From a phage, in sequence record PZ386971.1: a stretch of 64,000 nucleotides of DNA, one strand, 5' to 3'. Shown here piece by piece: positions 4,636 to 32,175 of this stretch. The number at the start of each line of letters is the position of its first letter. Position 1 is the first letter of the stretch. Under the pieces are notes generated by a model that was not told the origin of the DNA, searched no databases, and worked only from the letters and a program-made list of their open reading frames with translations. The translations under genes were made by a program, and so were the position numbers.

Positions 4636-4992
4636 ATGACCAAGACCGAAATTAACGCTATCCTGAAAGAAATCGGCCTCTGCAACCTGAAACGCCGCGT
4701 CAATCCTTACCAGCCCGCAAAGCCAGTACGCGACAGCCAGGGAAAGATGATAAAAGGGATCTACTGTGCAGATGTTGGCCCAATGACTGTGACCAGTCCA
4801 CACATTGACAGATTTAACGCTATTGTTGAGGAGTTTTGTGGTAAGGTTCTGGGTGAACTAGCTAATGATTTATGCTCCCCAGATACCAAAGTTGTAGCTT
4901 TCGGGAGCCACCTCGTCACATTCCACCTCACCAGCTTCCGTGCCCACGGTGATTATCATGTGTATTATGCTCAGGTTAGCATTCGCAAATAG
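4636..4992 (+). CDS. Hypothetical protein (118 aa)
   Basis: ATG at 4636 preceded by AGGAACTATATC; the track's MKRRNYIM N-terminus is an artefact of an in-frame TTG in the leader. Confidence 0.5.
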   Translation: MTKTEINAILKEIGLCNLKRRVNPYQPAKPVRDSQGKMIKGIYCADVGPMTVTSPHIDRFNAIVEEFCGKVLGELANDLCSPDTKVVAFGSHLVTFHLTSFRAHGDYHVYYAQVSIRK

Positions 4993-4998
4993 CAGTTT

Positions 4999-5022
4999 AC
5001 CCCGCTGAGGCGGGGTTTAGTT
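4999..5022. terminator. Bidirectional terminator hairpin between convergent genes
   Basis: accccgcTGAGgcggggt flanked by T/A runs, between the + ORF ending 4992 and the - gene ending 5017. Confidence 0.5.
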
Positions 5023-6801
5023 TTCCAGTTCATACCGGATAAGACCACACCCCCAGATACGCCCCAACCCGGCTTCCACCGACAGCATATCCTCTGTTTT
5101 GCCTTCTATATCGTATCCAAGTTTAAGGAATTTCTCTTTCCTGAAATTGAATTTGTGTATACGTAAGCTATAGTCTGGTGTCACATATTTGTAATCAGGG
5201 GGAAGGATTTCCTTTTCAACAAATCCGTTATTCAGGTAAACATTTTTCAGACGACTGACAACACAACGATCACCAAAAGAATATACTGTCTCACCCCGAT
5301 GTCGAGCGATATAATATTTCAGCAAGCGTGAGAATGCGCCATGGCAATTGTTAGAAGCAAATCTCACCAATTCAATACCATGCACTCGTTTGGTAAACAA
5401 CATCACCGCCTGGATATTCCCAGTTTTGTCTACAAGGTGTATATAATCTGTCGCCACCACACCACCTTGTATATGGAATCGGTCGAGAAAGTCCTTGGAC
5501 GTCCTATAGGAGCCTTCCAAAATGGTATGTTGGCGAGCGTATGACAATGGTTTCCCTATCCCCAATTTTGCTTTTAGGAGTGATTTAACCACTTCCTGTT
5601 TGTCACGCCACTCATCTTCCCAGATATGGATTAATTGAATACCCTGGGATTCACAGTGCATAGTCTTTTCAAGATGGTAGTCTTTGTATCGATGTTTCTC
5701 CGAATGCCAATACAACCCATTAAATTCTATTGCCAACTTATGTTCTGGGCAGTATATGTCTATCTGGCGTGTGGTCGCCCTCCCGTCGAACATTTTACCT
5801 CTGAGGACGGAGAAATTACCAGATTCATAAACGACACCCAATGAATCCAGGTATGAACATATTTCTATTTCTGGCTGTGTTTGGCTTTGGCTGCTGGGGT
5901 ATGTGAAAGAGTTCCTATATTCTTCAGAAGAGAAATAGTGAGGTACGCCGTATTTTTCTTTTGAAATGATCCTGGTATTGGCCTGGCTTCTATCCCATAT
6001 AGCCTTTACCTTCAACGGATAATCAACCCCATATTTTAAGACGCATGTTTTCTTTCTCTTTTCTATAATGGAATTGAGGAACATTGGATGATCCACACCA
6101 TAGATCTTCCTCCAAGTCTCAATCACCCTTTCCCTCACTTCTGGCATTTTCATGACGTGTGATACGCCATAGCGTTCCATGACAGAAGCAGCCACTCTGT
6201 CCTTTATAACATCAGACTTCATAGGGTGGTCGACCCCATATTTCTTAAGGGCAGTTTCCCGTGACTTTTGTTTTACTTCTTCCAGTTGGAATATGTTGGC
6301 TACGCCATATTTCTCTGTTATGGCGTTTTCTAGGTTGGCCCGTTCTGAGCCTCCCACCTTCATTGATTCTCGTTGGCATTCTTCGGAACAAAACTTTTTG
6401 TATCTGGGCGGTTGGGCTTCCATTTCTAAGCCGACGTCAGCACCGCAAGTGGCACACTGCGACTTCGGAATATCGTACAGCCAAGCAGTTATCGCTTGTG
6501 GTTCTTCTAATAGGTCGTTGTGTGACACCACGTATCCAACAACATCAACCCCAGTATGGGCCGTGAGTAGGGGATGAGAGATAAGTTTGTAGTTCAACGA
6601 ACCATCTTTCTTCCTGAGTTTACTATCAACCCAAGAGCGGCATTCGGTTTCGGTCGTCGGGATGTCATCCAACAAACCCGGATTGCGTTTCATCGTTCCC
6701 AGCATGAATGATTTGCATTCGTCACTACAATACAACGCAGCCTTCCTGGTTGGGGTGAACGGTTTGTGGCAGCATAAACAATTTTTATCGGGGAATGGCA
6801 T
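5017..6801 (-). CDS. Homing-endonuclease-like protein: N-terminal Cys cluster, six tandem KYGV..HP repeats, Vsr/DUF559-like PD-(D/E)XK nuclease domain
   Basis: 594 aa from ATG 6801 (GAGGAT SD); N-terminal CLCCH..C..C; repeats KYGVANI / KYGVDHPM / RYGVSHVM / IYGVDHPM / KYGVDYPL / KYGVPHYF; IDIYCPEHKLAIEFNGLYWHSE...IHIWEDEW resembles the Vsr/DUF559 fold; antisense insertion between conserved sheath and tube genes. Confidence 0.55.
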   Translation of the reverse strand: MPFPDKNCLCCHKPFTPTRKAALYCSDECKSFMLGTMKRNPGLLDDIPTTETECRSWVDSKLRKKDGSLNYKLISHPLLTAHTGVDVVGYVVSHNDLLEEPQAITAWLYDIPKSQCATCGADVGLEMEAQPPRYKKFCSEECQRESMKVGGSERANLENAITEKYGVANIFQLEEVKQKSRETALKKYGVDHPMKSDVIKDRVAASVMERYGVSHVMKMPEVRERVIETWRKIYGVDHPMFLNSIIEKRKKTCVLKYGVDYPLKVKAIWDRSQANTRIISKEKYGVPHYFSSEEYRNSFTYPSSQSQTQPEIEICSYLDSLGVVYESGNFSVLRGKMFDGRATTRQIDIYCPEHKLAIEFNGLYWHSEKHRYKDYHLEKTMHCESQGIQLIHIWEDEWRDKQEVVKSLLKAKLGIGKPLSYARQHTILEGSYRTSKDFLDRFHIQGGVVATDYIHLVDKTGNIQAVMLFTKRVHGIELVRFASNNCHGAFSRLLKYYIARHRGETVYSFGDRCVVSRLKNVYLNNGFVEKEILPPDYKYVTPDYSLRIHKFNFRKEKFLKLGYDIEGKTEDMLSVEAGLGRIWGCGLIRYELEN

Positions 6802-6882: not shown

Positions 6883-7416
6883 ATGGCTACAGTTAATGAA
6901 TTCAGAGCAGCTATGTCACGCGGGGGTGGCGTTCAGCGCCAACACCGCTGGCGTGTGACTGTTAACTTCCCTTCCTTCGTGGCTGGAAGCGATACCATCC
7001 GTGATGTTTCGCTGTTGGCGGTGACCACAAATACCCCAACAGGCCAGCTCGGGGAGATACTCGTCCCATGGGGTGGTCGTGAACTTCCATTCCCAGGTGA
7101 CCGTCGTTTTGAGGCTCTGCCTGTAACGTTTATCAACGTTGTGGACAACGCCCCGTACAACGCATTCGAAGTCTGGCAGCAGTACATCAACGGCAGCAAC
7201 AACAACCGTGCGTCTGCTAACCCAGATGATTATTTCCGTGATGTAATCATGGAACTGCTGGATGCGAATGACAATGTCACCAAGACCTGGACCCTTCAGG
7301 GCGCCTGGCCTCAGAACCTCGGTCAGCTGGAACTGGACATGTCTGCAATGGACTCTTATACTCAGTTCACTGTTGACCTGCGTTACTTCCAGGCCATTTC
7401 AGACAAGTCTCTCTAA
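6883..7416 (+). CDS. 19: Tail tube protein (T4 gp19-like)
   Basis: 177 aa; C-terminal TWTLQGAWPQNLGQLELDMSAMDSYTQFTVDLRYFQ parallels T4 gp19 KGLWPTNVGELQLDWDSNNEIQTFEVTLALDYWE. Confidence 0.85.
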   Translation: MATVNEFRAAMSRGGGVQRQHRWRVTVNFPSFVAGSDTIRDVSLLAVTTNTPTGQLGEILVPWGGRELPFPGDRRFEALPVTFINVVDNAPYNAFEVWQQYINGSNNNRASANPDDYFRDVIMELLDANDNVTKTWTLQGAWPQNLGQLELDMSAMDSYTQFTVDLRYFQAISDKSL

Positions 7417-7482
7417 TGTCCTCAGTGCTGGGGGATCTATATTCCCCCTCACTAATTACAAGAAAATGTTGAGGACTTAATC

Positions 7483-9177
7483 ATGGCATTCGGTAATGGT
7501 GCATTCGGAAATGGGTTCTTCGGCTTGTTCGGCAGAGGCGGCAAAGTAGAAGCGCCGATTGATACCGACAAGATGGTCACGAACCAAGAAGAGAAGTTGC
7601 TTTCAAAAGCGACTGTTGTTGCGCTGGACGATTCTCAGGATGGTTCGATCATCCTCCAGGGCGGCGCGAACACATTCAATTTCGTTGGTGTTGAGAATGA
7701 GTTGCTCAACGTCAAACAGCTGGTCGAAGAGTACCAGTCTATGGCTCAGCAGCCTGAGATTCGTAAGGCTGTGGATATCATTGTCAACGACATCGTCACC
7801 TGTGAAGAGGACGAGACTCCTGTAACCATCAACCTGGAAAAGGTAGATGGCATCACAAACGAAGTCAAAGAGAAGATCACTGAAGCATTCAAAGAGATCA
7901 TGCATCTCCTTGACTTTGACAACACGGCGTATCAGAAGATCCGCAAATGGTATATTGAAGGCCGTCAGGCATTCCACGTTGTAGTGGACCCGAAGAACAA
8001 GAAAGCGGGTATCGCCAAACTCATCATGATGGACTCACGCTGTATCCGCCCAGTGTACATCGTTCAAAAGGCGATGCGCGACGGTATCGAAGTCATCAAT
8101 GACGTAAAACTTCAATACTACTACAACCCGAACTACAACCGCAACCAATTCACTGGCCAGTCCGGTACGTCTCAGAACTTCCAACCGTCACAGCAAGAGC
8201 TGGTGTTCGACGATGAGAGCATCGTGTATCTGGACAGTGGTGAAGAGCCTCTGGCGAATGGGGTTGTACCAAGCCTGCTGAACCCAGCTATCCGTCCCCT
8301 GAACAACCTTGTTACAACTGAAGATGCAACTGTGATCTATGCGATCACACGTGCTCCTGAGAAGCGAGCGTTCTATCTCGACGTGGGTACGCTGGGTAAG
8401 AAGTCGGCCGAAGAATACATGCAAGCCATGATGGGCAAATTCAAGAACCGTCTGGCGTATGATCGCACCACTGGTAAGGTGGCTGGTAACACTCATTTGA
8501 TGGGTATCGCTGAGGACTACTGGCTGCCACGTCGTGAAGGACAGAACGCAACCGAGATCTCCAACGTAGGCGGTGGCGATCAACTGGGTCAAATGGATCA
8601 TGTGGTATACTTCCGCGAGAAGCTCTACGAGGCTCTGATGATCCCTAAGAGCCGCCTGCAAGAGGAAGGTTCCATCAACATCGGTGGTTCCAATCTTGCT
8701 GAAATCACACAGGAAGAATTGCGCTTCAACAAGTTCTGTGCGAGCCTGCGCCGTCGTTATTCTTCTGGTATCTTCCTGGAACTTCTGCGCCGTCAGCTGA
8801 TATTGAAAGGCATTACAGATCAGGCTGACTGGAATGAGAAGATCAAGCCGTTCGTCAAGTTCGAATTCACTTCTGACAGCTTCATCCGTGAACAACAAGA
8901 GAACGAAATCTTGTCACAGCGTATGGCGGCTCTCGGTCAGATCGAACCATATATCGGCACTCTCTTCTCTATCGATTTTGCTCAACGCAATTTGCTGCGT
9001 ATGTCCGATGAAGACATCAAAGACCAGCAAGAGAAGATCGCGAAAGAGAAGAAAGAAGGCAAATACCCTGAAGTGCAGGCAGATGAGTCCGGCGGCTTCG
9101 GCAGCGGGGAAGTCAGTCCACTGAAATTCAGACCTAACGTCATCCCAGCGACTAACCCTCCTGGTGGTGAAGAATAA
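7483..9177 (+). CDS. 20: Portal protein (T4 gp20-like)
   Basis: 564 aa; located between tube and prohead protease as in T4; size close to gp20. Confidence 0.8.
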   Translation: MAFGNGAFGNGFFGLFGRGGKVEAPIDTDKMVTNQEEKLLSKATVVALDDSQDGSIILQGGANTFNFVGVENELLNVKQLVEEYQSMAQQPEIRKAVDIIVNDIVTCEEDETPVTINLEKVDGITNEVKEKITEAFKEIMHLLDFDNTAYQKIRKWYIEGRQAFHVVVDPKNKKAGIAKLIMMDSRCIRPVYIVQKAMRDGIEVINDVKLQYYYNPNYNRNQFTGQSGTSQNFQPSQQELVFDDESIVYLDSGEEPLANGVVPSLLNPAIRPLNNLVTTEDATVIYAITRAPEKRAFYLDVGTLGKKSAEEYMQAMMGKFKNRLAYDRTTGKVAGNTHLMGIAEDYWLPRREGQNATEISNVGGGDQLGQMDHVVYFREKLYEALMIPKSRLQEEGSINIGGSNLAEITQEELRFNKFCASLRRRYSSGIFLELLRRQLILKGITDQADWNEKIKPFVKFEFTSDSFIREQQENEILSQRMAALGQIEPYIGTLFSIDFAQRNLLRMSDEDIKDQQEKIAKEKKEGKYPEVQADESGGFGSGEVSPLKFRPNVIPATNPPGGEE

Positions 9178-9214
9178 TTCGACTAAGTATAGAAAACATT
9201 TAGAGGATATGAAC

Positions 9215-9385
9215 ATGGCCGCTATCGATCTGGTAAAAGCAATCATCGCTGGTGATACTGATGCCGCTGCTGCTGAATGCGAAATGGAGCTGTCCACTCG
9301 CGCCCAAGAACTGGTCCAGCAGGGTACTGAATATGTCTTGAACTCCCTGAGCCAAGACATGGGTCCTTTCGGCGACGACCAGTAA
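9215..9385 (+). CDS. Small acidic protein, possible prohead core protein (gp67-like position)
   Basis: 56 aa from ATG with GAGGA SD; lies between portal and protease where T4 encodes gp67/gp68. Confidence 0.35.
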   Translation: MAAIDLVKAIIAGDTDAAAAECEMELSTRAQELVQQGTEYVLNSLSQDMGPFGDDQ

Positions 9386-9397
9386 GAGGAATGTATC

Positions 9398-9703
9398 ATG
9401 GAAATCGAAGAAGTTGCAACGTTCGCTGATTTCCTGGCTTCCCGCATGGATGAGCAGAAAGTCATTGACAAGGTGAACGCAAAAGGCAAACGCCGTCGCC
9501 GTCTGCAGTGTGCTCCTGGTTTCAAACTGTCTGCGGATGGTTCCCGTTGTGAGGTGATGGTCGCCAGTGAGCGCCGTACTCGCAAGCTGGGCAACCGCAA
9601 GGCGATCCGAGCCAAGAAACGCATGGGTATGGGATACCAGCGCAAAATCGAGCGTCGTAAGAAAAAAGCAATGAAGTTCCGTCGTATGATGGGGCTGAGT
9701 TAA
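9398..9703 (+). CDS. Highly basic small protein, possible prohead core or internal protein (gp68-like position)
   Basis: 101 aa, Arg/Lys-rich C-terminal half (KRRRRL, RRKKKAMKFRR); synteny between portal and protease. Confidence 0.4.
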   Translation: MEIEEVATFADFLASRMDEQKVIDKVNAKGKRRRRLQCAPGFKLSADGSRCEVMVASERRTRKLGNRKAIRAKKRMGMGYQRKIERRKKKAMKFRRMMGLS

Positions 9704-11276: not shown

Positions 11277-11367
11277 TTTTAGCAGCCACAGCCCTCGAAA
11301 GGGGGCTTGATTTTGAACTACTAAGTAATTTCAACTTAACTGAATATCAATGTAAGGAATGACCATC

Positions 11368-12693
11368 ATGGCTAAGAAACTTGTTACCGAACAAATGCGC
11401 GAGCAGTGGCTGCCAGTTCTTCAGAAAGAATCTGAAAGCATCCAGCCGCTTTCTGCCGAAAACGTTGCCGTCCGTCTGCTGCAAAACCAGGCTGAGTGGA
11501 ACGCCAAAAACCTGGGCGAATCCGACGCTCCTGGCTCCGTGAACGCCTCTGTGGGCAAATGGCAGCCAGTCCTGATCGACATGGCCAAACGTCTGGCTCC
11601 GGTCAACATCGCGATGGACTTCTTCGGCGTTCAGCCGCTGTCTGGTCCTGACGGTCAGATCTTTGCTCTGCGTGCTCGCCAGGGCATTTCAGACGGCGGA
11701 TCCAACACCCAACATTCCCGTAAAGAACTGTTCATGCAGGAAGCTGATTCTGGCTACTCTGGTGACGACACTGCTCAGGCTGGCGACCCATCTGGCTTTA
11801 CCCAGACTGAGATCGAAGGTTCCGGCGCTGCCACCACCACCATCGGTAAAGGCATGTCAACTTCCGACGCTGAACTGCTGGGCACCACCACTAACCCATG
11901 GGCACGTGTTGGTATCACCGTTCAGAAAGCAACCGTGACTGCGAAGTCTCGCGGCCTGTACGCTGACTACAGCCATGAACTGCGCCAGGACATGATGGCG
12001 ATCCACGGCGAAGACGTTGACAGCATCCTGTCCGACGTGATGGTAACTGAAATTCAGGCAGAGATGAACCGTGAGTTTATCCGCACCATGAACTTCAGCG
12101 CAGTACGCTTCAAAAAATTCGGCACCAACGGTATCGTAGATATCTCCACTGACATCTCCGGTCGTTGGGCGCTGGAAAAATGGAAGTACATGACTTTCAT
12201 GCTGGAAGTCGAAGCGAACGGCATCGGTGTTGACACCCGTCGTGGTAAAGGCAACCGTGTTCTGTGCTCCCCGAACGTAGCATCCGCTCTGGCGATGTCC
12301 GGCATGCTGGATTATGCTCCGGCGCTGCAGGAAAACACCAAGCTGGCGATTGATCCGACTGGCCAGACCTTCGCTGGTGTGCTGTCTAATGGTATGCGTG
12401 TCTACATCGACCCGTATGCAGTAGCAGAGTACATCACCCTGGCATACAAAGGCGCAACCGCGCTGGATGCTGGTATCTTCTTCGCCCCATACGTTCCGCT
12501 GGAGATGTACCGCACCCAGGGTGAAACCACCTTCGCTCCACGCATGGCGTTCAAGACCCGCTACGGGATTTGTGCCAACCCGTTCGTTCAGATCCCAGCG
12601 AACCAGGATCCACAGGTCTATGTGACTGCGGATGGTATCGCCAAGGACACCAACGTGTATTTCCGCAAAGGGTTAATTAAGGGACTTTTCTAA
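11368..12693 (+). CDS. 23: Major capsid protein (T4 gp23-like)
   Basis: GVQPLSGPDGQIFALRA vs T4 GVQPMNSPTGQVFALRA; GVLSNGMRVYIDPYA...AYKGATALDAGIFFAPYV...FKTRYGI vs T4 GVLGGKYRVYIDQYA...GYKGPNEMDAGIYYAPYV...FKTRYGI; start at ATG 11368 with AAGGAA SD. Confidence 0.95.
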   Translation: MAKKLVTEQMREQWLPVLQKESESIQPLSAENVAVRLLQNQAEWNAKNLGESDAPGSVNASVGKWQPVLIDMAKRLAPVNIAMDFFGVQPLSGPDGQIFALRARQGISDGGSNTQHSRKELFMQEADSGYSGDDTAQAGDPSGFTQTEIEGSGAATTTIGKGMSTSDAELLGTTTNPWARVGITVQKATVTAKSRGLYADYSHELRQDMMAIHGEDVDSILSDVMVTEIQAEMNREFIRTMNFSAVRFKKFGTNGIVDISTDISGRWALEKWKYMTFMLEVEANGIGVDTRRGKGNRVLCSPNVASALAMSGMLDYAPALQENTKLAIDPTGQTFAGVLSNGMRVYIDPYAVAEYITLAYKGATALDAGIFFAPYVPLEMYRTQGETTFAPRMAFKTRYGICANPFVQIPANQDPQVYVTADGIAKDTNVYFRKGLIKGLF

Positions 12694-12720
12694 TCGAATA
12701 GTTGTCCTTAACCCTGACAA

Positions 12721-12742
12721 ACCCCGCTTCGGCGGGGTTTTT
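12721..12742 (+). terminator. Rho-independent terminator after the major capsid gene
   Basis: accccgcTTCGgcggggttttt, identical stem-loop to the one at 4509. Confidence 0.65.
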
Positions 12743-12995: not shown

Positions 12996-13055
12996 CAGTT
13001 TTCAATAACGGGGCGAGAGGTATTATTGCCCCGTCTACTATCCGAGGGTTGTGCC

Positions 13056-13986: not shown

Positions 13987-14011
13987 ATTTTAAATTTATT
14001 CAATATACGGG

Positions 14012-14040
14012 GTTTAATTCTTCAATAAACCCCGTATACT
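14012..14040 (+). promoter_or_regulatory. Early promoter, cassette A copy 2 (-35 GTTTAAT, -10 TATACT), -35 lies in the loop of a tacgggg..ccccgta stem
   Basis: Followed by the same conserved leader tcattccataagcagcacaaca...gaaa and AGGAAATATATCATG as at 4588 and 48392. Confidence 0.5.
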
Positions 14041-14419: not shown

Positions 14420-14488
14420 TTTGTTCTAAACCTTTGAACAGGGTATGTTAACCGCATACCCTATCCCCTACAAATAGAGGACTTTACC

Positions 14489-14833
14489 ATGGCAGCAGAC
14501 ACCAAACTGAACAAATCCGTGGAGATCCCCCACATCGTCAAATTCGAAAAGCCGAGCGAGCGTAAGCCACGCAAATCGCGTCGCCTGGTCACCAAACTGG
14601 ATATTCTGAAACAGAAGTTCGGCGACCACAGCGTGTTCACGCGCATTCGAAATGCATTAAAGGAAGGGCGAACTGAGCTGGAACTATATCGACCGAACGG
14701 TTCGACACGCGCGTATCAGACCACTGACGGCTTACTGGAACTGATCCGCCTGAGCGGGATGACGATCGAACCTCGTTCGTCAGGCACTCCTCTGTGCTCC
14801 CTGTACGTAATCGGCAATCTTGGGGCGCTGTGA
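14489..14833 (+). CDS. Hypothetical protein with basic N-terminal region (114 aa)
   Basis: ORF with GAGGA SD; KPSERKPRKSRR segment. Confidence 0.5.
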   Translation: MAADTKLNKSVEIPHIVKFEKPSERKPRKSRRLVTKLDILKQKFGDHSVFTRIRNALKEGRTELELYRPNGSTRAYQTTDGLLELIRLSGMTIEPRSSGTPLCSLYVIGNLGAL

Positions 14834-14838
14834 GTTCT

Positions 14839-15261
14839 ATGAAGAAGTATATCGTTCTCATTACGGGTTCCCGCTCAATCACCGAGCGGGATAAGGTATT
14901 CGCCAAGCTGGACGAACTCCTCGATCCTCATGAAGTCTATACGTTGATCGAGGGTGAGGCCACGGGTGTCGACACGATTTGCCGTGATTGGGCTGAAATC
15001 AATTATGTTCATATCACCCCCATGCCGATCCCTCCGAGCTATTATGAAAAGTATGGGAACGGGATGGGTAACAAACGCAATCAGGACATGTTAGACAAGG
15101 CATTGGATCTCGTCAGGCAGACCAAGCTGGAAGTGTATCCGATTGCGATGTGGGATGGTTCGTCCACTGGCACCCTGGACATGATCAACCGTTGCAAGAA
15201 AGCTGGCCTCCCTGTGGATATCACTCTAATGGGTAAGCCGAAGACCAAGCGCCTTTTGTAA
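14839..15261 (+). CDS. SLOG-superfamily (DUF2493/YspA-like) nucleotide-binding protein
   Basis: 140 aa; VLITGSRSITERD ... EGEATGVDTICRDWAE pattern typical of DprA/LOG-like Rossmann domains found in phages. Confidence 0.5.
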   Translation: MKKYIVLITGSRSITERDKVFAKLDELLDPHEVYTLIEGEATGVDTICRDWAEINYVHITPMPIPPSYYEKYGNGMGNKRNQDMLDKALDLVRQTKLEVYPIAMWDGSSTGTLDMINRCKKAGLPVDITLMGKPKTKRLL

Positions 15262-15302: not shown

Positions 15303-15473
15303 ATGTTTGTCGTCATCAATCTGTTCTGCTATATCTTCACGGCGTACTTCTTGGGCGCGGTATGGATCGAGACCTACAATGACCTGAAGGATGGGGAATA
15401 CGCCAACCGAATGGTTTATGTCAAGAAGTTTGTTCGTAAGTTCTGGTCCAACTTCGTTTACAAACTACCATGA
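15303..15473 (+). CDS. Small predicted membrane protein (56 aa)
   Basis: Not in the ORF track (under 60 aa); GGAGA SD; hydrophobic helix MFVVINLFCYIFTAYFLGAVW. Confidence 0.35.
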   Translation: MFVVINLFCYIFTAYFLGAVWIETYNDLKDGEYANRMVYVKKFVRKFWSNFVYKLP

Positions 15474-15511
15474 TCCCTAAATACCCCCATCATCCATGGG
15501 GGTATTTTCTT

Positions 15512-16240
15512 ATGAACGCACAGATCTATGACGCCCTATCGCAGGGCAACGCCTTTACCAATCCTCTCCCGTCCCTCAGCAGCGCCTCACAGGGGTTAAT
15601 CACCAGTGGTAAGGCGACTACAGCGTCACTGGCTAACACCGGAAATACGCAGATTCAGGAAGCGCTGACGGCAGGTGGGTTGACTACAGCCAAACTCAAC
15701 GAATCTACGGCGATGTTCAACTCAGCAAACACCAGCATCACCACGCTGATCAACTATGGCGACCAGTCAGTGAACGAGGCATATTCCCGCATCGGTACAT
15801 CTGTGTCGTATAAGTCCGCCCTGAAGTCTATAGGTCGAGAACCGAACAACTGTGATCTGATCAATAATGCATTTGGGGTTATTCAGAACCTCGGCAAACA
15901 GTGGATCAATACCATGCAAAGTGTTCTCACAACTATCACAAACAAGATGAATGAGTTGGCTGAATTGGTAGCTCAGGGTGTCAGTGCTGGTCTTGATGCT
16001 ATTCGGGCACTGGCTGCTGAAGTTACTCAGGCCATCGACACTGCTGTCGCATCAGTAGCCTCTATTGCTCAGGACATCACGAACGGTATTGCAGCAGAGT
16101 TAGCCCATATCCAAGACATGGTTGGTAAGTGTCTTAACTTCTCTTTTGCCAACGTGATCTCAGAGTGGGCGAAAGATATCTGCGCCGGAGGTGTCATCAA
16201 CAGCATTGGTTCCGATAATCTGAAGAACGCACTGAAGTAA
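15512..16240 (+). CDS. Hypothetical alpha-helical protein (243 aa), possibly late or virion-associated
   Basis: ATG 15512 preceded by late-like motif CCTAAATAC inside a hairpin; Ala/Thr/Ser-rich helical sequence. Confidence 0.5.
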   Translation: MNAQIYDALSQGNAFTNPLPSLSSASQGLITSGKATTASLANTGNTQIQEALTAGGLTTAKLNESTAMFNSANTSITTLINYGDQSVNEAYSRIGTSVSYKSALKSIGREPNNCDLINNAFGVIQNLGKQWINTMQSVLTTITNKMNELAELVAQGVSAGLDAIRALAAEVTQAIDTAVASVASIAQDITNGIAAELAHIQDMVGKCLNFSFANVISEWAKDICAGGVINSIGSDNLKNALK

Positions 16241-28781: not shown

Positions 28782-29654
28782 ATGACAACTCGCACTGGCA
28801 TCAAACTCACTCCTGAAGTCCTGAAGTCACATATCGCTGAGGTGATTTACGAAGACCGCGAAGTCGGCGGTCACCGGGCTATCACTTGTCATTTCAAGAT
28901 GGATAACGGCTTCGTCGTTCACGGCACCAAGCCCAGCACATCCATAGACCCGGCCAACTTCGATGAAGCCCTGGGCAAAGAGATTTCCTACAATAACACC
29001 TTCGACCAGCTGTGGCAGCTGGAGGCGTACCGGGCGCTTGTTGAACAAGATCTGTTGGCCAAAGCCACGGAAACGGCAGAGATCCGGATCGATCAATACG
29101 CTGTTGAACGTAGCGCCCTCTGTCCGGCCTATCACCTCGGCTTCAATGTGATGATTCAGGAAGTGATGTTCAGAGCGGAAAATGGCGAGCGCTTCTTGGC
29201 GTCTTTCATTTGTGGGCCGGATGACATGGAACTTGTTGTTGAATCTCACAACGCCAAATCTCGTAAGGCTGTTAGTGATTTCCTGCGCGCCAACTCCAAA
29301 CTCGATCTCACTTGTTCGCCATTGGTTCTGCGCATCGCCAAGATTTGTCATGAAGCCAACCGCGCATACTGCAAGTCTATTGGTGACGACTCTCAACTGC
29401 CTTGGGAACAATCTCCGGCCTGGCAGCGTGAGAGCGCTTGCAAAGGTGTTATCTTCCATCTCACTGGTGATCGTAAGCCCAGCGAATCGCATGAGAGATG
29501 GATGGCGGAGAAGGAGTCTGAGGGATGGGTATATGGCCCAGTCAAAGACCCTCAGACCAAGCAACACCCTTGCATAGTTCCGTATGGAGAACTCCCGGTA
29601 CAACAACGCTCCAAAGATTATATTTTCAAATCCATTGTAGACTCCTTTAAATAA
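28782..29654 (+). CDS. Gp49-like N-terminal domain fused to a C-terminal RyR-domain
   Basis: N-terminus HRAITCHFKMDNGFVVHGT...DPANFDEALGKEISYNNTFDQLWQLEAYRAL; C-terminus HERWMAEKESEGWVYGPVKDPQTKQHPCIVPYGELP resembles the RyR repeat. Confidence 0.5.
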   Translation: MTTRTGIKLTPEVLKSHIAEVIYEDREVGGHRAITCHFKMDNGFVVHGTKPSTSIDPANFDEALGKEISYNNTFDQLWQLEAYRALVEQDLLAKATETAEIRIDQYAVERSALCPAYHLGFNVMIQEVMFRAENGERFLASFICGPDDMELVVESHNAKSRKAVSDFLRANSKLDLTCSPLVLRIAKICHEANRAYCKSIGDDSQLPWEQSPAWQRESACKGVIFHLTGDRKPSESHERWMAEKESEGWVYGPVKDPQTKQHPCIVPYGELPVQQRSKDYIFKSIVDSFK

Positions 29655-29690
29655 GCTCTGAATAATATTTCAACCTGTCAATAATATAAT

Positions 29691-29719
29691 GCCCGGTTAT
29701 ATTCAATCGGGCATTTTTA
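29691..29719 (+). terminator. Terminator-like hairpin after the RyR-domain gene
   Basis: gcccg-(12 nt loop)-cgggc followed by ATTTTTA. Confidence 0.4.
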
Positions 29720-29728
29720 TTATATTAA

Positions 29729-29759
29729 TTGGCATCAATACCGCCTGTCGTAATATAAT
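29729..29759 (+). promoter_or_regulatory. Sigma70-like promoter (TTGGCA ... TATAAT) upstream of the vWA gene
   Basis: TTGGCA at 29729 and TAATATAAT at about 29751-29759 (16-19 bp spacer depending on hexamer choice). Confidence 0.4.
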
Positions 29760-29804
29760 AGTCCCATGTTAAAATAGTTAGGAAATATAACTCACGAGAG
29801 CCTG

Positions 29805-29981
29805 ATGACCGACAACAAATTAAAACGTGTCGGACTTGATTGTCTTGACAATTCATTCCGCCCCAGTGATGTTCTGGTCGCCCAAATGGAAAACAACCGG
29901 GATTTCATTGAAACTATGCTGGAGAACGCCGACGCGAACTCCAAACACTCCAAAGCCCAAAAAGGTCAAAACGATGATTGA
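29805..29981 (+). CDS. Possible small ORF (58 aa) overlapping the vWA start
   Basis: Not in the track (under 60 aa); ATG with GAGAG upstream; reads MTDNKLKRVGLDCLDNSFRP...; hand-indexed coordinates. Confidence 0.25.
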   Translation: MTDNKLKRVGLDCLDNSFRPSDVLVAQMENNRDFIETMLENADANSKHSKAQKGQNDD

Positions 29982-32175
29982 ATCATTAACATTTAAGAAT
30001 GCGGTTGCGACCGTTGCGCCGTCTAACCATGTAATCGTTGTGGATATCTCCGGTTCCATGTATCGTTCACTTCCAGAAGTCCGTAAGCATCTGAAGGAGA
30101 ACCTGCCTTCCCTGGTGAAACCCGAAGATACTGTGAGCATCCTTTACTTTTCATCTCGCGGTGATTTCGGAACGGTATTTGCCGGACGCCAGATCGGTGT
30201 CGCATCTGACCTGAGCGAGCTGAATAAGCTGATCGATCGCTTCCTGCAACCGTCCGGATGTACTGGCTTTGTTGAGCCGTTGAAACTGGCGATGGACACT
30301 GCTCGTAGCCTGAAGAAGCCTGGCTATGTCAACAACCTGGCGTTCATGACTGACGGGTATGACAACTGCTGGCGTACCAACGAAATCTTACTGGTTGCTG
30401 AGACCCTGCCATTTGCTTTCGATAACATTACTTTCATCGAATACGGCTGGCACTGTAACCGCGAACTGCTGGCGCAGATGGCCGAACGCTCCGGTGCGAC
30501 CCACGTGTTTGCCGAAGGTCAGACCGAATACCAGACCGAACTAGAAAACGTGCTGAAGTCATCAGTGCCGAAGGTGAAAGTTGATGTCCCAGTCATCTAC
30601 ACCCATGCCATCTACGTCGAAAACGGTGTGGCAACAGTACTGGCGGTGCAGGACGATGACTCTCACCCGGTCGGCTATGTGAGCATCCCTGAGAGCGTCA
30701 CCAAGCTGTGGGTTGTAAACCCTAACATGATCGACCAGCTTGATGCGCTGGCGGACATCCAGGCGGCATACGTGCTGGCGTTCTACGGCGTACACATCAT
30801 GGACGCAGACCTGGTATGGGCTGCGCTGAAGAAGACGGGCGACGTTCGCTTCATCAAACAGTACAGCAACTGCTTTACCAAGCAGGACTACTCCAACATC
30901 AAGAACGATCTGGTACAGGCGATTGTTGACGACCAGCTGCGCGGCGTTGACGGTATTGACTATGACCTGGTTCCGGCTGAAGATGCGACGACCGTCGTTG
31001 ACGTGCTGACGTATCTGGCTGAAGCTGGCGTGTCTGTTGCCACCAAACATCCTATGTTCTCCTACAAGAGCATTGGTCGCGGTACTGTGCAGAAAGCGGA
31101 CGATACCGAAGACAAACTGGCAGAACAGATCGCGAATGCTCAGTCCAAAGAAGAGCGTAAAGCCCTGGCTCTCAAGCTGGCTGAGCACGAAGAATGGACG
31201 CCGTCGTTTGAACCTGCCAACGATCTGGGCGTTATCTCAATCAGCGATCTGGTCTACAACTCTGAGCGCCCGAACATCAGTGTGCGCACTATTCAGCATG
31301 GTACTGTGACTGTCCCTGAGTTCGCACAGAAGAAGTTTGGTCTGCCTGAAGAACTGGATACTTTCCAGTGGCGCAACTACACCATCGTCAAAGATGGTAT
31401 CATCAACGTGAAGACCCTGCCGTTCAAGGCTGATATCGAAGTTGTACAGAAGCTGATCGAAATGGGCGTCCACGTGTTTGGTGGACCGGAAGTGTTTGTC
31501 CTGAACCTGGAAAGCGTACCGCTGGTCAACCGCGCCATGGTCAAGAACATCAGTGCTGCTCAGTTCTTTGCGGATAATGTCCGTTTGGAAGCCCTGAAAG
31601 GCAAGCAGAAGGTGCTGAAGTTCTATCGAGACGCCCTGGTTGGTAAAGGTAACGCCAAAGGCCTGGCAGTACAGTACGGCGCTGAGGCGGCCGAGTTCCT
31701 GTCCTCCTACGGCATCCGCGATTACGGCTTCTCACCGAAGACTGAGACCAAAGAGTCTACCGACTTCTACATGAGCCGGGAGCTGAACGTGAAGATCGCT
31801 GGCGCTTCATCTCTACCGTCTATCGCAGCGGTACAGAAGAAGATTGCCGAGAACAAGAAACTCAATGCTGGTGACTTGTTCATCGCCAATGCTCTGAAAG
31901 AGTACGAAGCATTCGTGAAGTCTCCTATGATCACTGCCGTGCCTGAAGCCTTACAGAAACAGCTGATCGAAAACTGGATCGACGCTGCTGCCAAGGCGAC
32001 CATCACCGAAGTCCGTGCCCTGAACAAGACACTGTCTAAAGTGGTGTATGGTATCGTTGCTGGCCACGGCTGGTTCACCGACCTCGACCTGGAAGAGTCC
32101 ACCATGGAAGTTGAAGTGGATGGCGTGAAGTACAAGGTCACTGCCGAACTGACAGAGAAAGAAATCAAAATCTAA
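29974..32175 (+). CDS. von Willebrand factor A (vWA) domain protein, 733 aa
   Basis: VIVVDISGSM (MIDAS DxSxS), later FMTDGYDN; N-terminal 49 aa of the track ORF are low-complexity and likely untranslated, start ATG 29974 with AAAGG SD. Confidence 0.7.
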   Translation: MIESLTFKNAVATVAPSNHVIVVDISGSMYRSLPEVRKHLKENLPSLVKPEDTVSILYFSSRGDFGTVFAGRQIGVASDLSELNKLIDRFLQPSGCTGFVEPLKLAMDTARSLKKPGYVNNLAFMTDGYDNCWRTNEILLVAETLPFAFDNITFIEYGWHCNRELLAQMAERSGATHVFAEGQTEYQTELENVLKSSVPKVKVDVPVIYTHAIYVENGVATVLAVQDDDSHPVGYVSIPESVTKLWVVNPNMIDQLDALADIQAAYVLAFYGVHIMDADLVWAALKKTGDVRFIKQYSNCFTKQDYSNIKNDLVQAIVDDQLRGVDGIDYDLVPAEDATTVVDVLTYLAEAGVSVATKHPMFSYKSIGRGTVQKADDTEDKLAEQIANAQSKEERKALALKLAEHEEWTPSFEPANDLGVISISDLVYNSERPNISVRTIQHGTVTVPEFAQKKFGLPEELDTFQWRNYTIVKDGIINVKTLPFKADIEVVQKLIEMGVHVFGGPEVFVLNLESVPLVNRAMVKNISAAQFFADNVRLEALKGKQKVLKFYRDALVGKGNAKGLAVQYGAEAAEFLSSYGIRDYGFSPKTETKESTDFYMSRELNVKIAGASSLPSIAAVQKKIAENKKLNAGDLFIANALKEYEAFVKSPMITAVPEALQKQLIENWIDAAAKATITEVRALNKTLSKVVYGIVAGHGWFTDLDLEESTMEVEVDGVKYKVTAELTEKEIKI

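Follow-up and report, generated by a model that had tools for sequence, protein, structure and literature searches.

The 140-aa ORF located at positions 14839-15261 of the window, as the whole 64,000-nucleotide stretch of phage DNA under analysis (record PZ386971.1) is called here, was found to be a real, conserved gene under purifying selection, whose product was assigned with very high confidence to the stand-alone YAcAr/DUF2493 proteins of the SLOG superfamily. The residues conserved throughout this family appear to compose a minimal DprA-like pocket, and a role directed at DNA was tentatively favoured over the sponging or hydrolysis of an immune signal, which was judged the less probable of the two.

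The family is already catalogued, and its finding in this phage adds nothing beyond the public annotation, in which orthologues are named 'DUF2493 domain-containing', 'YspA domain containing' or 'YspA cpYpsA-related SLOG domain-containing', or, in SEA-PHAGES-style annotation, 'DprA-like'. In their survey, Iyer et al. (2022) observed that viral SLOG domains belong mostly to the YpsA-like clade, that SLOG domains occur in 31% of jumbo phages, and that viral SLOG domains are found fused to Macro, NADAR and DUF4326 domains as well as to helicase, HNH, exonuclease and HTH domains; they proposed that viral SLOG proteins sense or degrade cADPR-type signals (PMC9503650). A survey of jumbo phages names YAcAr explicitly (PMC7824862), and no functional study of DUF2493/YAcAr was found in the literature. 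The sequence-only reading of this stretch had suggested that a phage copy could bind or hydrolyse a host signalling nucleotide and, since only the proposal of Iyer et al. and no YAcAr experiment was found in the literature, this idea corresponds to an existing prediction. Papers on UG17/DRT10 were set aside as irrelevant, SLOG being mentioned in them only through the SLATT acronym. Among the small proteins of tailed phages and giant viruses that still lack an explanation, YAcAr/DUF2493 is one of the more common, and since the present copy is carried by phages of E. coli, Enterobacter and Salmonella that lend themselves to engineering, it offers a practical entry point to the family.

The gene and its genomic context

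The phage was found to be Agtrevirus-like, within the Ackermannviridae, with 97.8% identity to Enterobacter phage fGh-Ecl02 over 4.5 kb and 97.6% identity of the stretch to Escherichia phage AV101. The YAcAr gene lies within a series of small ORFs, all on one strand, and the main features of this region are as follows.

11359-12693, major capsid gene, upstream of the YAcAr gene
12719-12740, terminator, upstream of the YAcAr gene
14489-14833, + strand, upstream ORF of 114 aa (phrog_4663), directly 5′ of the YAcAr gene
14839-15261, + strand, YAcAr gene of 140 aa, from ATG at 14839 to TAA at 15259-15261, stop codon included
15470-16240, + strand, DUF7217 region matched by PHROG_289
28782-32175 (approximate), + strand, ribose-phosphate pyrophosphokinase/nicotinamide phosphoribosyltransferase (NAMPT) region, equivalent to ORF50-51 of phage P46FS4 at positions 6982-9497 of locus L098

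An alternative GTG start at 14794 would give a longer ORF; however, it overlaps the upstream gene, and the conservation among homologues starts at the MKKY of the 140-aa protein, for which reasons the ATG at 14839 was taken as the real start. On the 3′ side, the YAcAr gene is followed by a 56-aa ORF, a DUF7217 protein (named 'structural protein' in some records), DUF7424 on the opposite strand and the gp3 tail-completion protein, and further 3′ by UvsY, an exonuclease, UvsW and the sliding clamp with its loader; UvsY, the exonuclease, UvsW and the clamp are placed 2-6 kb downstream of the YAcAr gene, with UvsW at ~3.4 kb. An NAD-salvage pair of Agtreviruses, composed of ribose-phosphate pyrophosphokinase and NAMPT, was observed ~14 kb downstream, and its window ORF at 29827-32175 encodes 782 aa, compared with 554 aa for the P46FS4 NAMPT.

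The same gene position was observed in Agtrevirus, in Kuttervirus (CBA120 orf174) and in the Miltonvirus phiMAM1. The comparison with phage P46FS4 resulted in a dN/dS of 0.07; in relation to CBA120, synonymous sites were saturated and amino acid identity was still 76%, and the copy of the distant phiMAM1 showed 48% identity by tblastn, or 51% over aligned codons. Altogether, copies with >=60% identity were present in ~269 phage records, and the protein matched ~1% of deposited phage genomes.

Concerning expression timing, the sequence-only reading had counted the gene among 'early small ORFs', and early or middle expression appears plausible from the arrangement of putative promoters. The motif CTAAATA occurs eight times in the window, always on the + strand (2215, 6850, 10391, 15477, 18676, 46994, 47583 and 52815) and 16-87 nt 5′ of gene starts, about 3.7 copies being expected on both strands together. 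By this number and placement, and since the phage encodes homologues of gp55 and gp33, the motif can be considered a candidate late promoter. Its copy at 15477 precedes the DUF7217 gene; the interval from the capsid-gene terminator to the YAcAr gene has no CTAAATA and contains sigma-70-like sites. The small-ORF cluster is placed between the capsid-gene terminator and the late structural genes. The T4 late promoter TATAAATA was also considered and discarded, as neither of its two copies in the window is near the YAcAr gene, and no Ackermannviridae transcriptome was found in the literature. Three GC-rich hairpins were noticed on the + strand at 13011-13036, 14009-14036 and 14443-14462, each in an intergenic gap of the small-ORF cluster on the 5′ side of the YAcAr gene; they may stabilise transcripts or act in the manner of terminators, a clear T-tract being present only in the hairpin after the capsid gene (12719-12740), and an Rfam search of the window gave no match.

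Family membership and predicted fold

The protein scored 43.6 bits (E-value 2.7e-11) against the Pfam family PF10686 (YAcAr, formerly DUF2493), whose curated cut-off is 28.2. In this match, aa 5-58 are aligned with positions 2-55 of the 66-position profile, the model spanning the N-terminal half only, and the homology of the C-terminal half was established by the full-length family alignment. A match to PHROG_289 was also found (E-value 5.5e-39), and NCBIfam gave no match. When a profile of 24 close relatives was searched against a library of 1.84 billion representatives, 28,958 of them matched at E<=1e-3; the family size of ~29,000 refers to representatives at 50% identity. Most of these representatives are stand-alone proteins of ~115-140 aa, the size class to which the present protein also belongs, and the family is mostly phage-borne. 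Homologues were found in 41 of 72,556 plasmids, of which 40 were non-mobilizable, and a role in the leading region of conjugative plasmids was rejected on these figures.

The AlphaFold model built from a 100-sequence alignment (pLDDT 94.3, pTM 0.87) presented five strands and four helices, with low confidence at residues 132-140; a single-sequence model, with a pLDDT of 50, was discarded. In the accepted model, the protein is predicted to be a three-layer alpha/beta Rossmannoid with a parallel five-stranded core sheet, to which SLOG members are nearest, and the two pocket loops that characterize the SLOG fold were found, with G10-S-R12 after strand 1 and G39-x-A41-x-G43-x-D45 after strand 2. 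The protein would thus be a minimal five-stranded SLOG Rossmannoid domain followed by a short basic tail. The fold matches received the following scores, while Foldseek ranked the DprA proteins of H. pylori and S. pneumoniae at the top.

YpsA (2nx2), 11.7
TM1055 (1rcu), 10.8
ShosA (8zva), 10.7
TRPM2 MHR domain, 10.6
DprA (3maj), 10.5
SLOG domain of ThsA with 3'cADPR (7uxs), 10.4
DprA (4ljk), 10.0
MoCo carrier, 9.9
LOG enzymes, 9.2-9.5

The sequence and fold evidence therefore place the protein in the YAcAr family of the SLOG superfamily. The earlier assignment to SLOG/DUF2493, which had been made from motifs alone, was borne out by PF10686, PHROG_289 and the fold: a significant match exists at 43.6 bits, the nearest structures are SLOG proteins, and the proposed HMM comparison with DUF2493 passed the Pfam cut-off. 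The same comparison with the LOG family failed, as no PF03641 match was obtained at E<=10.

The YpsA-like clade of the SLOG superfamily was reportedly described by Burroughs et al. in 2015. The placement of YAcAr in this clade within SLOG is also given in PMC6459960 and PMC9503650, and a GxD/E motif after strand 2, predicted to bind substrate, defines the clade (PMC6459960); in the present protein it corresponds to G43-V44-D45. The protein shares with YAcAr/DUF2493 the score above threshold, all the invariant residues, the size and the carriage by phages. The Ackermannviridae clade differs from the rest of the family by an extra three-residue insert (I64-P-P66), a longer helix after strand 3 (~aa 90-99), a basic C-tail, and the sequence Y.KYGNGMGNKRN in place of the YAcAr consensus W.KYGKxAGPIRN.

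Conserved residues and the putative nucleotide pocket

Among 100 diverse YAcAr members, G10, R12, G39, A41, G43, D45, G77, R80, N81 and G111 were invariant, and A76, M84 (98%), A103, S109, T112 and M115 were conserved in 96-99%; the group formed by S109, G111, T112 and M115 reached 99-100%. These residues are concentrated in four motifs, to which the C-terminal tail is added.

14866-14874, + strand, GSR motif (codons of G10-S11-R12), loop after strand 1
14953-14973, + strand, codons of G39-E-A41-T-G43-V-D45, loop and helix start after strand 2, including the GxD/E of the YpsA clade
15067-15081, + strand, RN motif (codons of G77-N-K-R80-N81), long helix after strand 3
15151-15183, + strand, codons of W105-D-G-S-S109-T-G111-T112-L-D-M115, loop and helix start after strand 4
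15232-15258, + strand, basic C-tail (codons of G132-KPKTKRLL-140), kept across Ackermannviridae-type members

The two sequences on which the first assignment had relied were found at aa 8-18 (ITGSRSITERD) and aa 38-53 (EGEATGVDTICRDWAE). The GSR part of the signature then described was correct, and the second motif, given as GGxxGxD, is in fact GxAxGxD, with G39, A41, G43 and D45.

The GSR and GxAxGxD motifs aligned with the GSR and SGLARGID of E. coli Smf by both hhalign and hmmsearch, comparisons of the family profile that covered the N-terminal half only and had low probability. Because the programs aligned this half only, the equivalence between G-x-x-R-N (G77, R80, N81) and the FPRRN of E. 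coli Smf was recognized by eye, with Gly in the position of the aromatic residue. In H. pylori DprA, 'G-S/T/A-R' and 'F/L/Y-x-x-R-N/D' are the ssDNA-binding signatures, and the DprA substitutions R52E and R143E decreased the affinity for ssDNA ~315-fold and ~173-fold, respectively (PMC3950713). For ShosA, the equivalent arginines R139 and R234 were required for both ssDNA binding and antitoxin function (PMC12961424; PMC11961720). Many YAcAr relatives presented sub-threshold matches to PF02481 (DprA), a Pfam family for which the present protein had no match, and a PDB sequence search with the family profile returned insignificant DprA matches only (E-value 1.7). Judged by conserved residues, the YAcAr family would therefore represent a minimal DprA-like pocket, with the caveat that GSR-like and Arg-helix motifs are also found elsewhere in the SLOG superfamily.

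The 'G-S/T/A-R' motif of DprA/Smf (PF02481; 4ljk and 4ljr of H. pylori, 3uqz of S. pneumoniae), in the loop after the first core strand, is present in the YAcAr protein as G10-S11-R12; ShosA (8zva) is a DprA-like antitoxin. However, the YAcAr protein is ~65 residues shorter than DprA, whose domain has ~205 aa, with five strands instead of nine, it has neither SAM nor DML1 domains, its core is acidic, and Gly replaces the aromatic residue. The net charge is -3 for the core (pI 5.4) and +4 for the tail, compared with +7 for the Smf domain. The tail, GKPK(T/S)KRL(L/I), is shared by every Ackermannviridae-type copy, even at 47% identity, and absent from the rest of the family, and it is probably disordered according to the model. 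The possibility that it served as a shared docking motif was rejected, as a similar C-terminus was found in none of the other real genes of the window.

The comparison with LOG proteins led in another direction. The LOG motif PGGxGTxxE (PMC3950713) includes the catalytic Glu; the corresponding segment of the YAcAr protein is G107-S-S-T-G111-T112-L-D-M115, in which the Glu site is occupied by Met, as it is in 99 of 100 members. The LOG/PpnN proteins (PF03641; 5ajt, 5wq3, 9us2, 1rcu) thus differ from the present one in this Glu, replaced by Met115 and, as no PF03641 match exists either, hydrolysis of the LOG type appears unlikely.

Gene neighbours and domain fusions across phages

The viral locus search, carried out with a 13-sequence sub-alignment of the family, revealed no neighbour family in more than six loci when 74 non-redundant IMG/VR loci were clustered by BLAST, and the 148 nearest ORFs of >=100 aa contained 59 Pfam families, none of them in more than two loci. 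The existence of a universal operon partner was rejected on both counts. The recognisable neighbours were largely DNA enzymes, including family A DNA polymerase, UvrD helicase, DnaG, Prim-Pol, SNF2, the pol III delta subunit, HNH nucleases, methylases and integrases, and nucleotide-metabolism genes (thymidylate kinase, NrdD) were also present. In Klebsiella phage KpV52, the YAcAr gene is found directly 3′ of the DNA polymerase gene; in KVP40-like vibriophages, a stand-alone YAcAr gene is placed directly 5′ of a Dda-like helicase gene; and in PhiW-14 it follows the clamp, the clamp loader and RegA. The accessory helicase HelB of the lytic phage ICP1 carries a C-terminal DUF2493 fused to a Dda-like SF1B helicase (bioRxiv 10.1101/671271), whereas the present protein is stand-alone with no helicase gene adjacent, and a Streptomyces DciA is fused to a YAcAr/DUF2493 domain (bioRxiv 10.1101/2022.01.24.477630).

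Domains linked to ADP-ribose were encountered less often: within 6 kb of YAcAr, DUF4326 was found in three and NADAR in two of 78 loci, and in one metagenomic phage YAcAr is directly followed by a cREC gene, with NADAR nearby. Overall, fusions and neighbours are mostly DNA enzymes, and ADP-ribose-processing domains are a minority.

Two further fusions were recorded. A 470-aa reverse transcriptase-YAcAr fusion (positions 4963-6375 of locus L081, from the 156-kb viral contig IMGVR_UViG_3300031555_002371) comprises RVT_1 at aa 68-266 and a C-terminal YAcAr domain at aa 347-413, and a NADAR gene is found at the same locus. In the metagenomic protein P0152 (1099 aa), a DarT1-type NADAR is combined with three YAcAr domains and with DUF4326. 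NADAR domains of the DarT1 type detach ADP-ribose from the guanine of DNA; from its domain content, P0152 would tie the YAcAr family to the reversal of DNA ADP-ribosylation and, if the NADAR acts on DNA in this way, the fusion would be compatible with a DNA-directed module.

Proposed role and alternative explanations

It is proposed that R12, G39/A41/G43/D45, R80/N81 and S109/G111/T112 would line one nucleotide-binding pocket, equivalent to the site that in DprA and ShosA receives the base and phosphate of ssDNA. The YAcAr protein would be a small DNA-directed module whose nucleotide pocket is not of the LOG type. Its target would be ssDNA, or else a normal or modified nucleotide within DNA, and it would assist the replication, recombination or repair of the phage as an accessory factor rather than hydrolyse free nucleotides. 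A DNA-directed module is favoured because the invariant residues coincide with the DprA/ShosA pocket and the gene neighbours and fusions are mainly DNA enzymes, and the fixed position of the gene across Ackermannviridae genera fits a housekeeping role, not that of a rapidly exchanged accessory gene. Even so, this proposal is held with somewhat less than even confidence.

In a second explanation, regarded as rather doubtful, the pocket would sponge or cleave 2'/3'cADPR, His-ADPR or N7-cADPR, blunting Thoeris-like immunity. This counter-defence role has been predicted for viral SLOG proteins of the YpsA-like type (PMC9503650), and it draws on the analogy to the SLOG domain of ThsA, which binds 3'cADPR. 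However, in type I Thoeris the ThsA domain (7uxs) is a sensor fused to a SIR2 NADase, while the present protein is stand-alone, encoded by a phage and only 17% identical to it, and no experiment on any YAcAr protein was found in the literature. The genomic data also argue against this explanation, since ADP-ribose-linked neighbours occur in ~6% of loci, no ADP-ribose-processing partner gene is found near the present gene, and the gene is fixed and syntenic across the Ackermannviridae, in contrast with the patchy spread usual for sponges. Furthermore, the catalytic Glu of LOG enzymes is absent, the NADAR of the P0152 fusion is DarT1-associated and acts on ADP-ribosylated DNA, so that DNA targeting fits it as well, and PADLOC, whose library does not cover anti-defence proteins, gave no match. 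The sequence-only reading was right as to the family, and its suggestion that a signalling nucleotide is bound or hydrolysed went without locus-specific support, with Met115 in the place of the Glu; though reasonable, this suggestion was an unsupported guess, and one or more other explanations fit equally.

The stop codon of the upstream ORF lies 5 nt before the ATG at 14839, a spacing that indicates translational coupling of the two genes. phrog_4663 was found in 271 phage records, all Ackermannviridae-like, and the ORF is always placed directly 5′ of the YAcAr gene, which it adjoins in CBA120 and phiMAM1 as well; it shows 91% identity to CBA120 (76% for YAcAr), its phiMAM1 copy is still detectable, and it has no homologue in Pfam or the PDB. 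The two genes may constitute a two-gene module. It is conceivable, although distinctly unlikely, that in this Ackermannviridae module the DprA-like pocket would read a nucleotide that marks phage or host conflict and so protect phage replication, in which case an ADP-ribosylated or hypermodified base within ssDNA, or else an immune signal of the cADPR type, could serve as ligand. If true, a viral YAcAr protein would be characterised for the first time, and the module would represent a new class of factors that counter defence or guard replication.

An enzyme of the nucleotide pool is improbable. Such a protein would act as an N-glycosidase or phosphoribohydrolase on a free (d)NMP or nucleoside, comparable to LOG, PpnN or deoxyribosyltransferase/DNPH1, for the purposes of nucleotide sanitation, NAD metabolism or the thymidine hypermodification typical of Ackermannviridae. 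However, PF03641 remains unmatched even at E<=10, Met takes the place of the Glu of PGGxGTxxE in 99% of members, the viral loci yielded no conserved partner from nucleotide metabolism, and the family also occurs in many phages without known DNA modification.

The modulation of host cell division or physiology is more improbable still. It would be analogous to B. subtilis YpsA, whose overproduction blocks FtsZ assembly. To our knowledge, YpsA has no GSR motif. The identity between YpsA (2nx2) and the present protein is only 15%, the YpsA residues required for filamentation are not kept even in the prophage relative YoqJ, and the link of YpsA to GpsB and cell division is specific to Firmicutes (PMC6459960). 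The neighbourhood of the gene also contains no pointer to cell division.

Finally, a GTP-binding protein or guanylate kinase can practically be dismissed, the database label 'GTP-binding domain' of PHROG/RefSeq, derived from old annotations of phiEco32-like phages, being contradicted by the missing Walker A/P-loop motif (GxxxxGK[ST]) in the 140 aa, by a fold that is that of SLOG structures and not of P-loop NTPases, and by the chimeric nature (DUF2493 and DUF7217) of the PHROG_289 profile.

In this profile of 500 positions, labelled 'GTP-binding domain', positions 20-146 correspond to DUF2493 and positions 250-500 to DUF7217, which is encoded two genes downstream. The chimera likely originated from a merged 475-aa ORF of Salmonella phage 38 (A0A0N7CDB8), and a true DUF2493-DUF7217 fusion was rejected as an artefact of that ORF. 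As a consequence of the chimeric profile, DUF7217 proteins, which are also found in FelixO1-like phages, are mislabelled as GTP-binding in some records.
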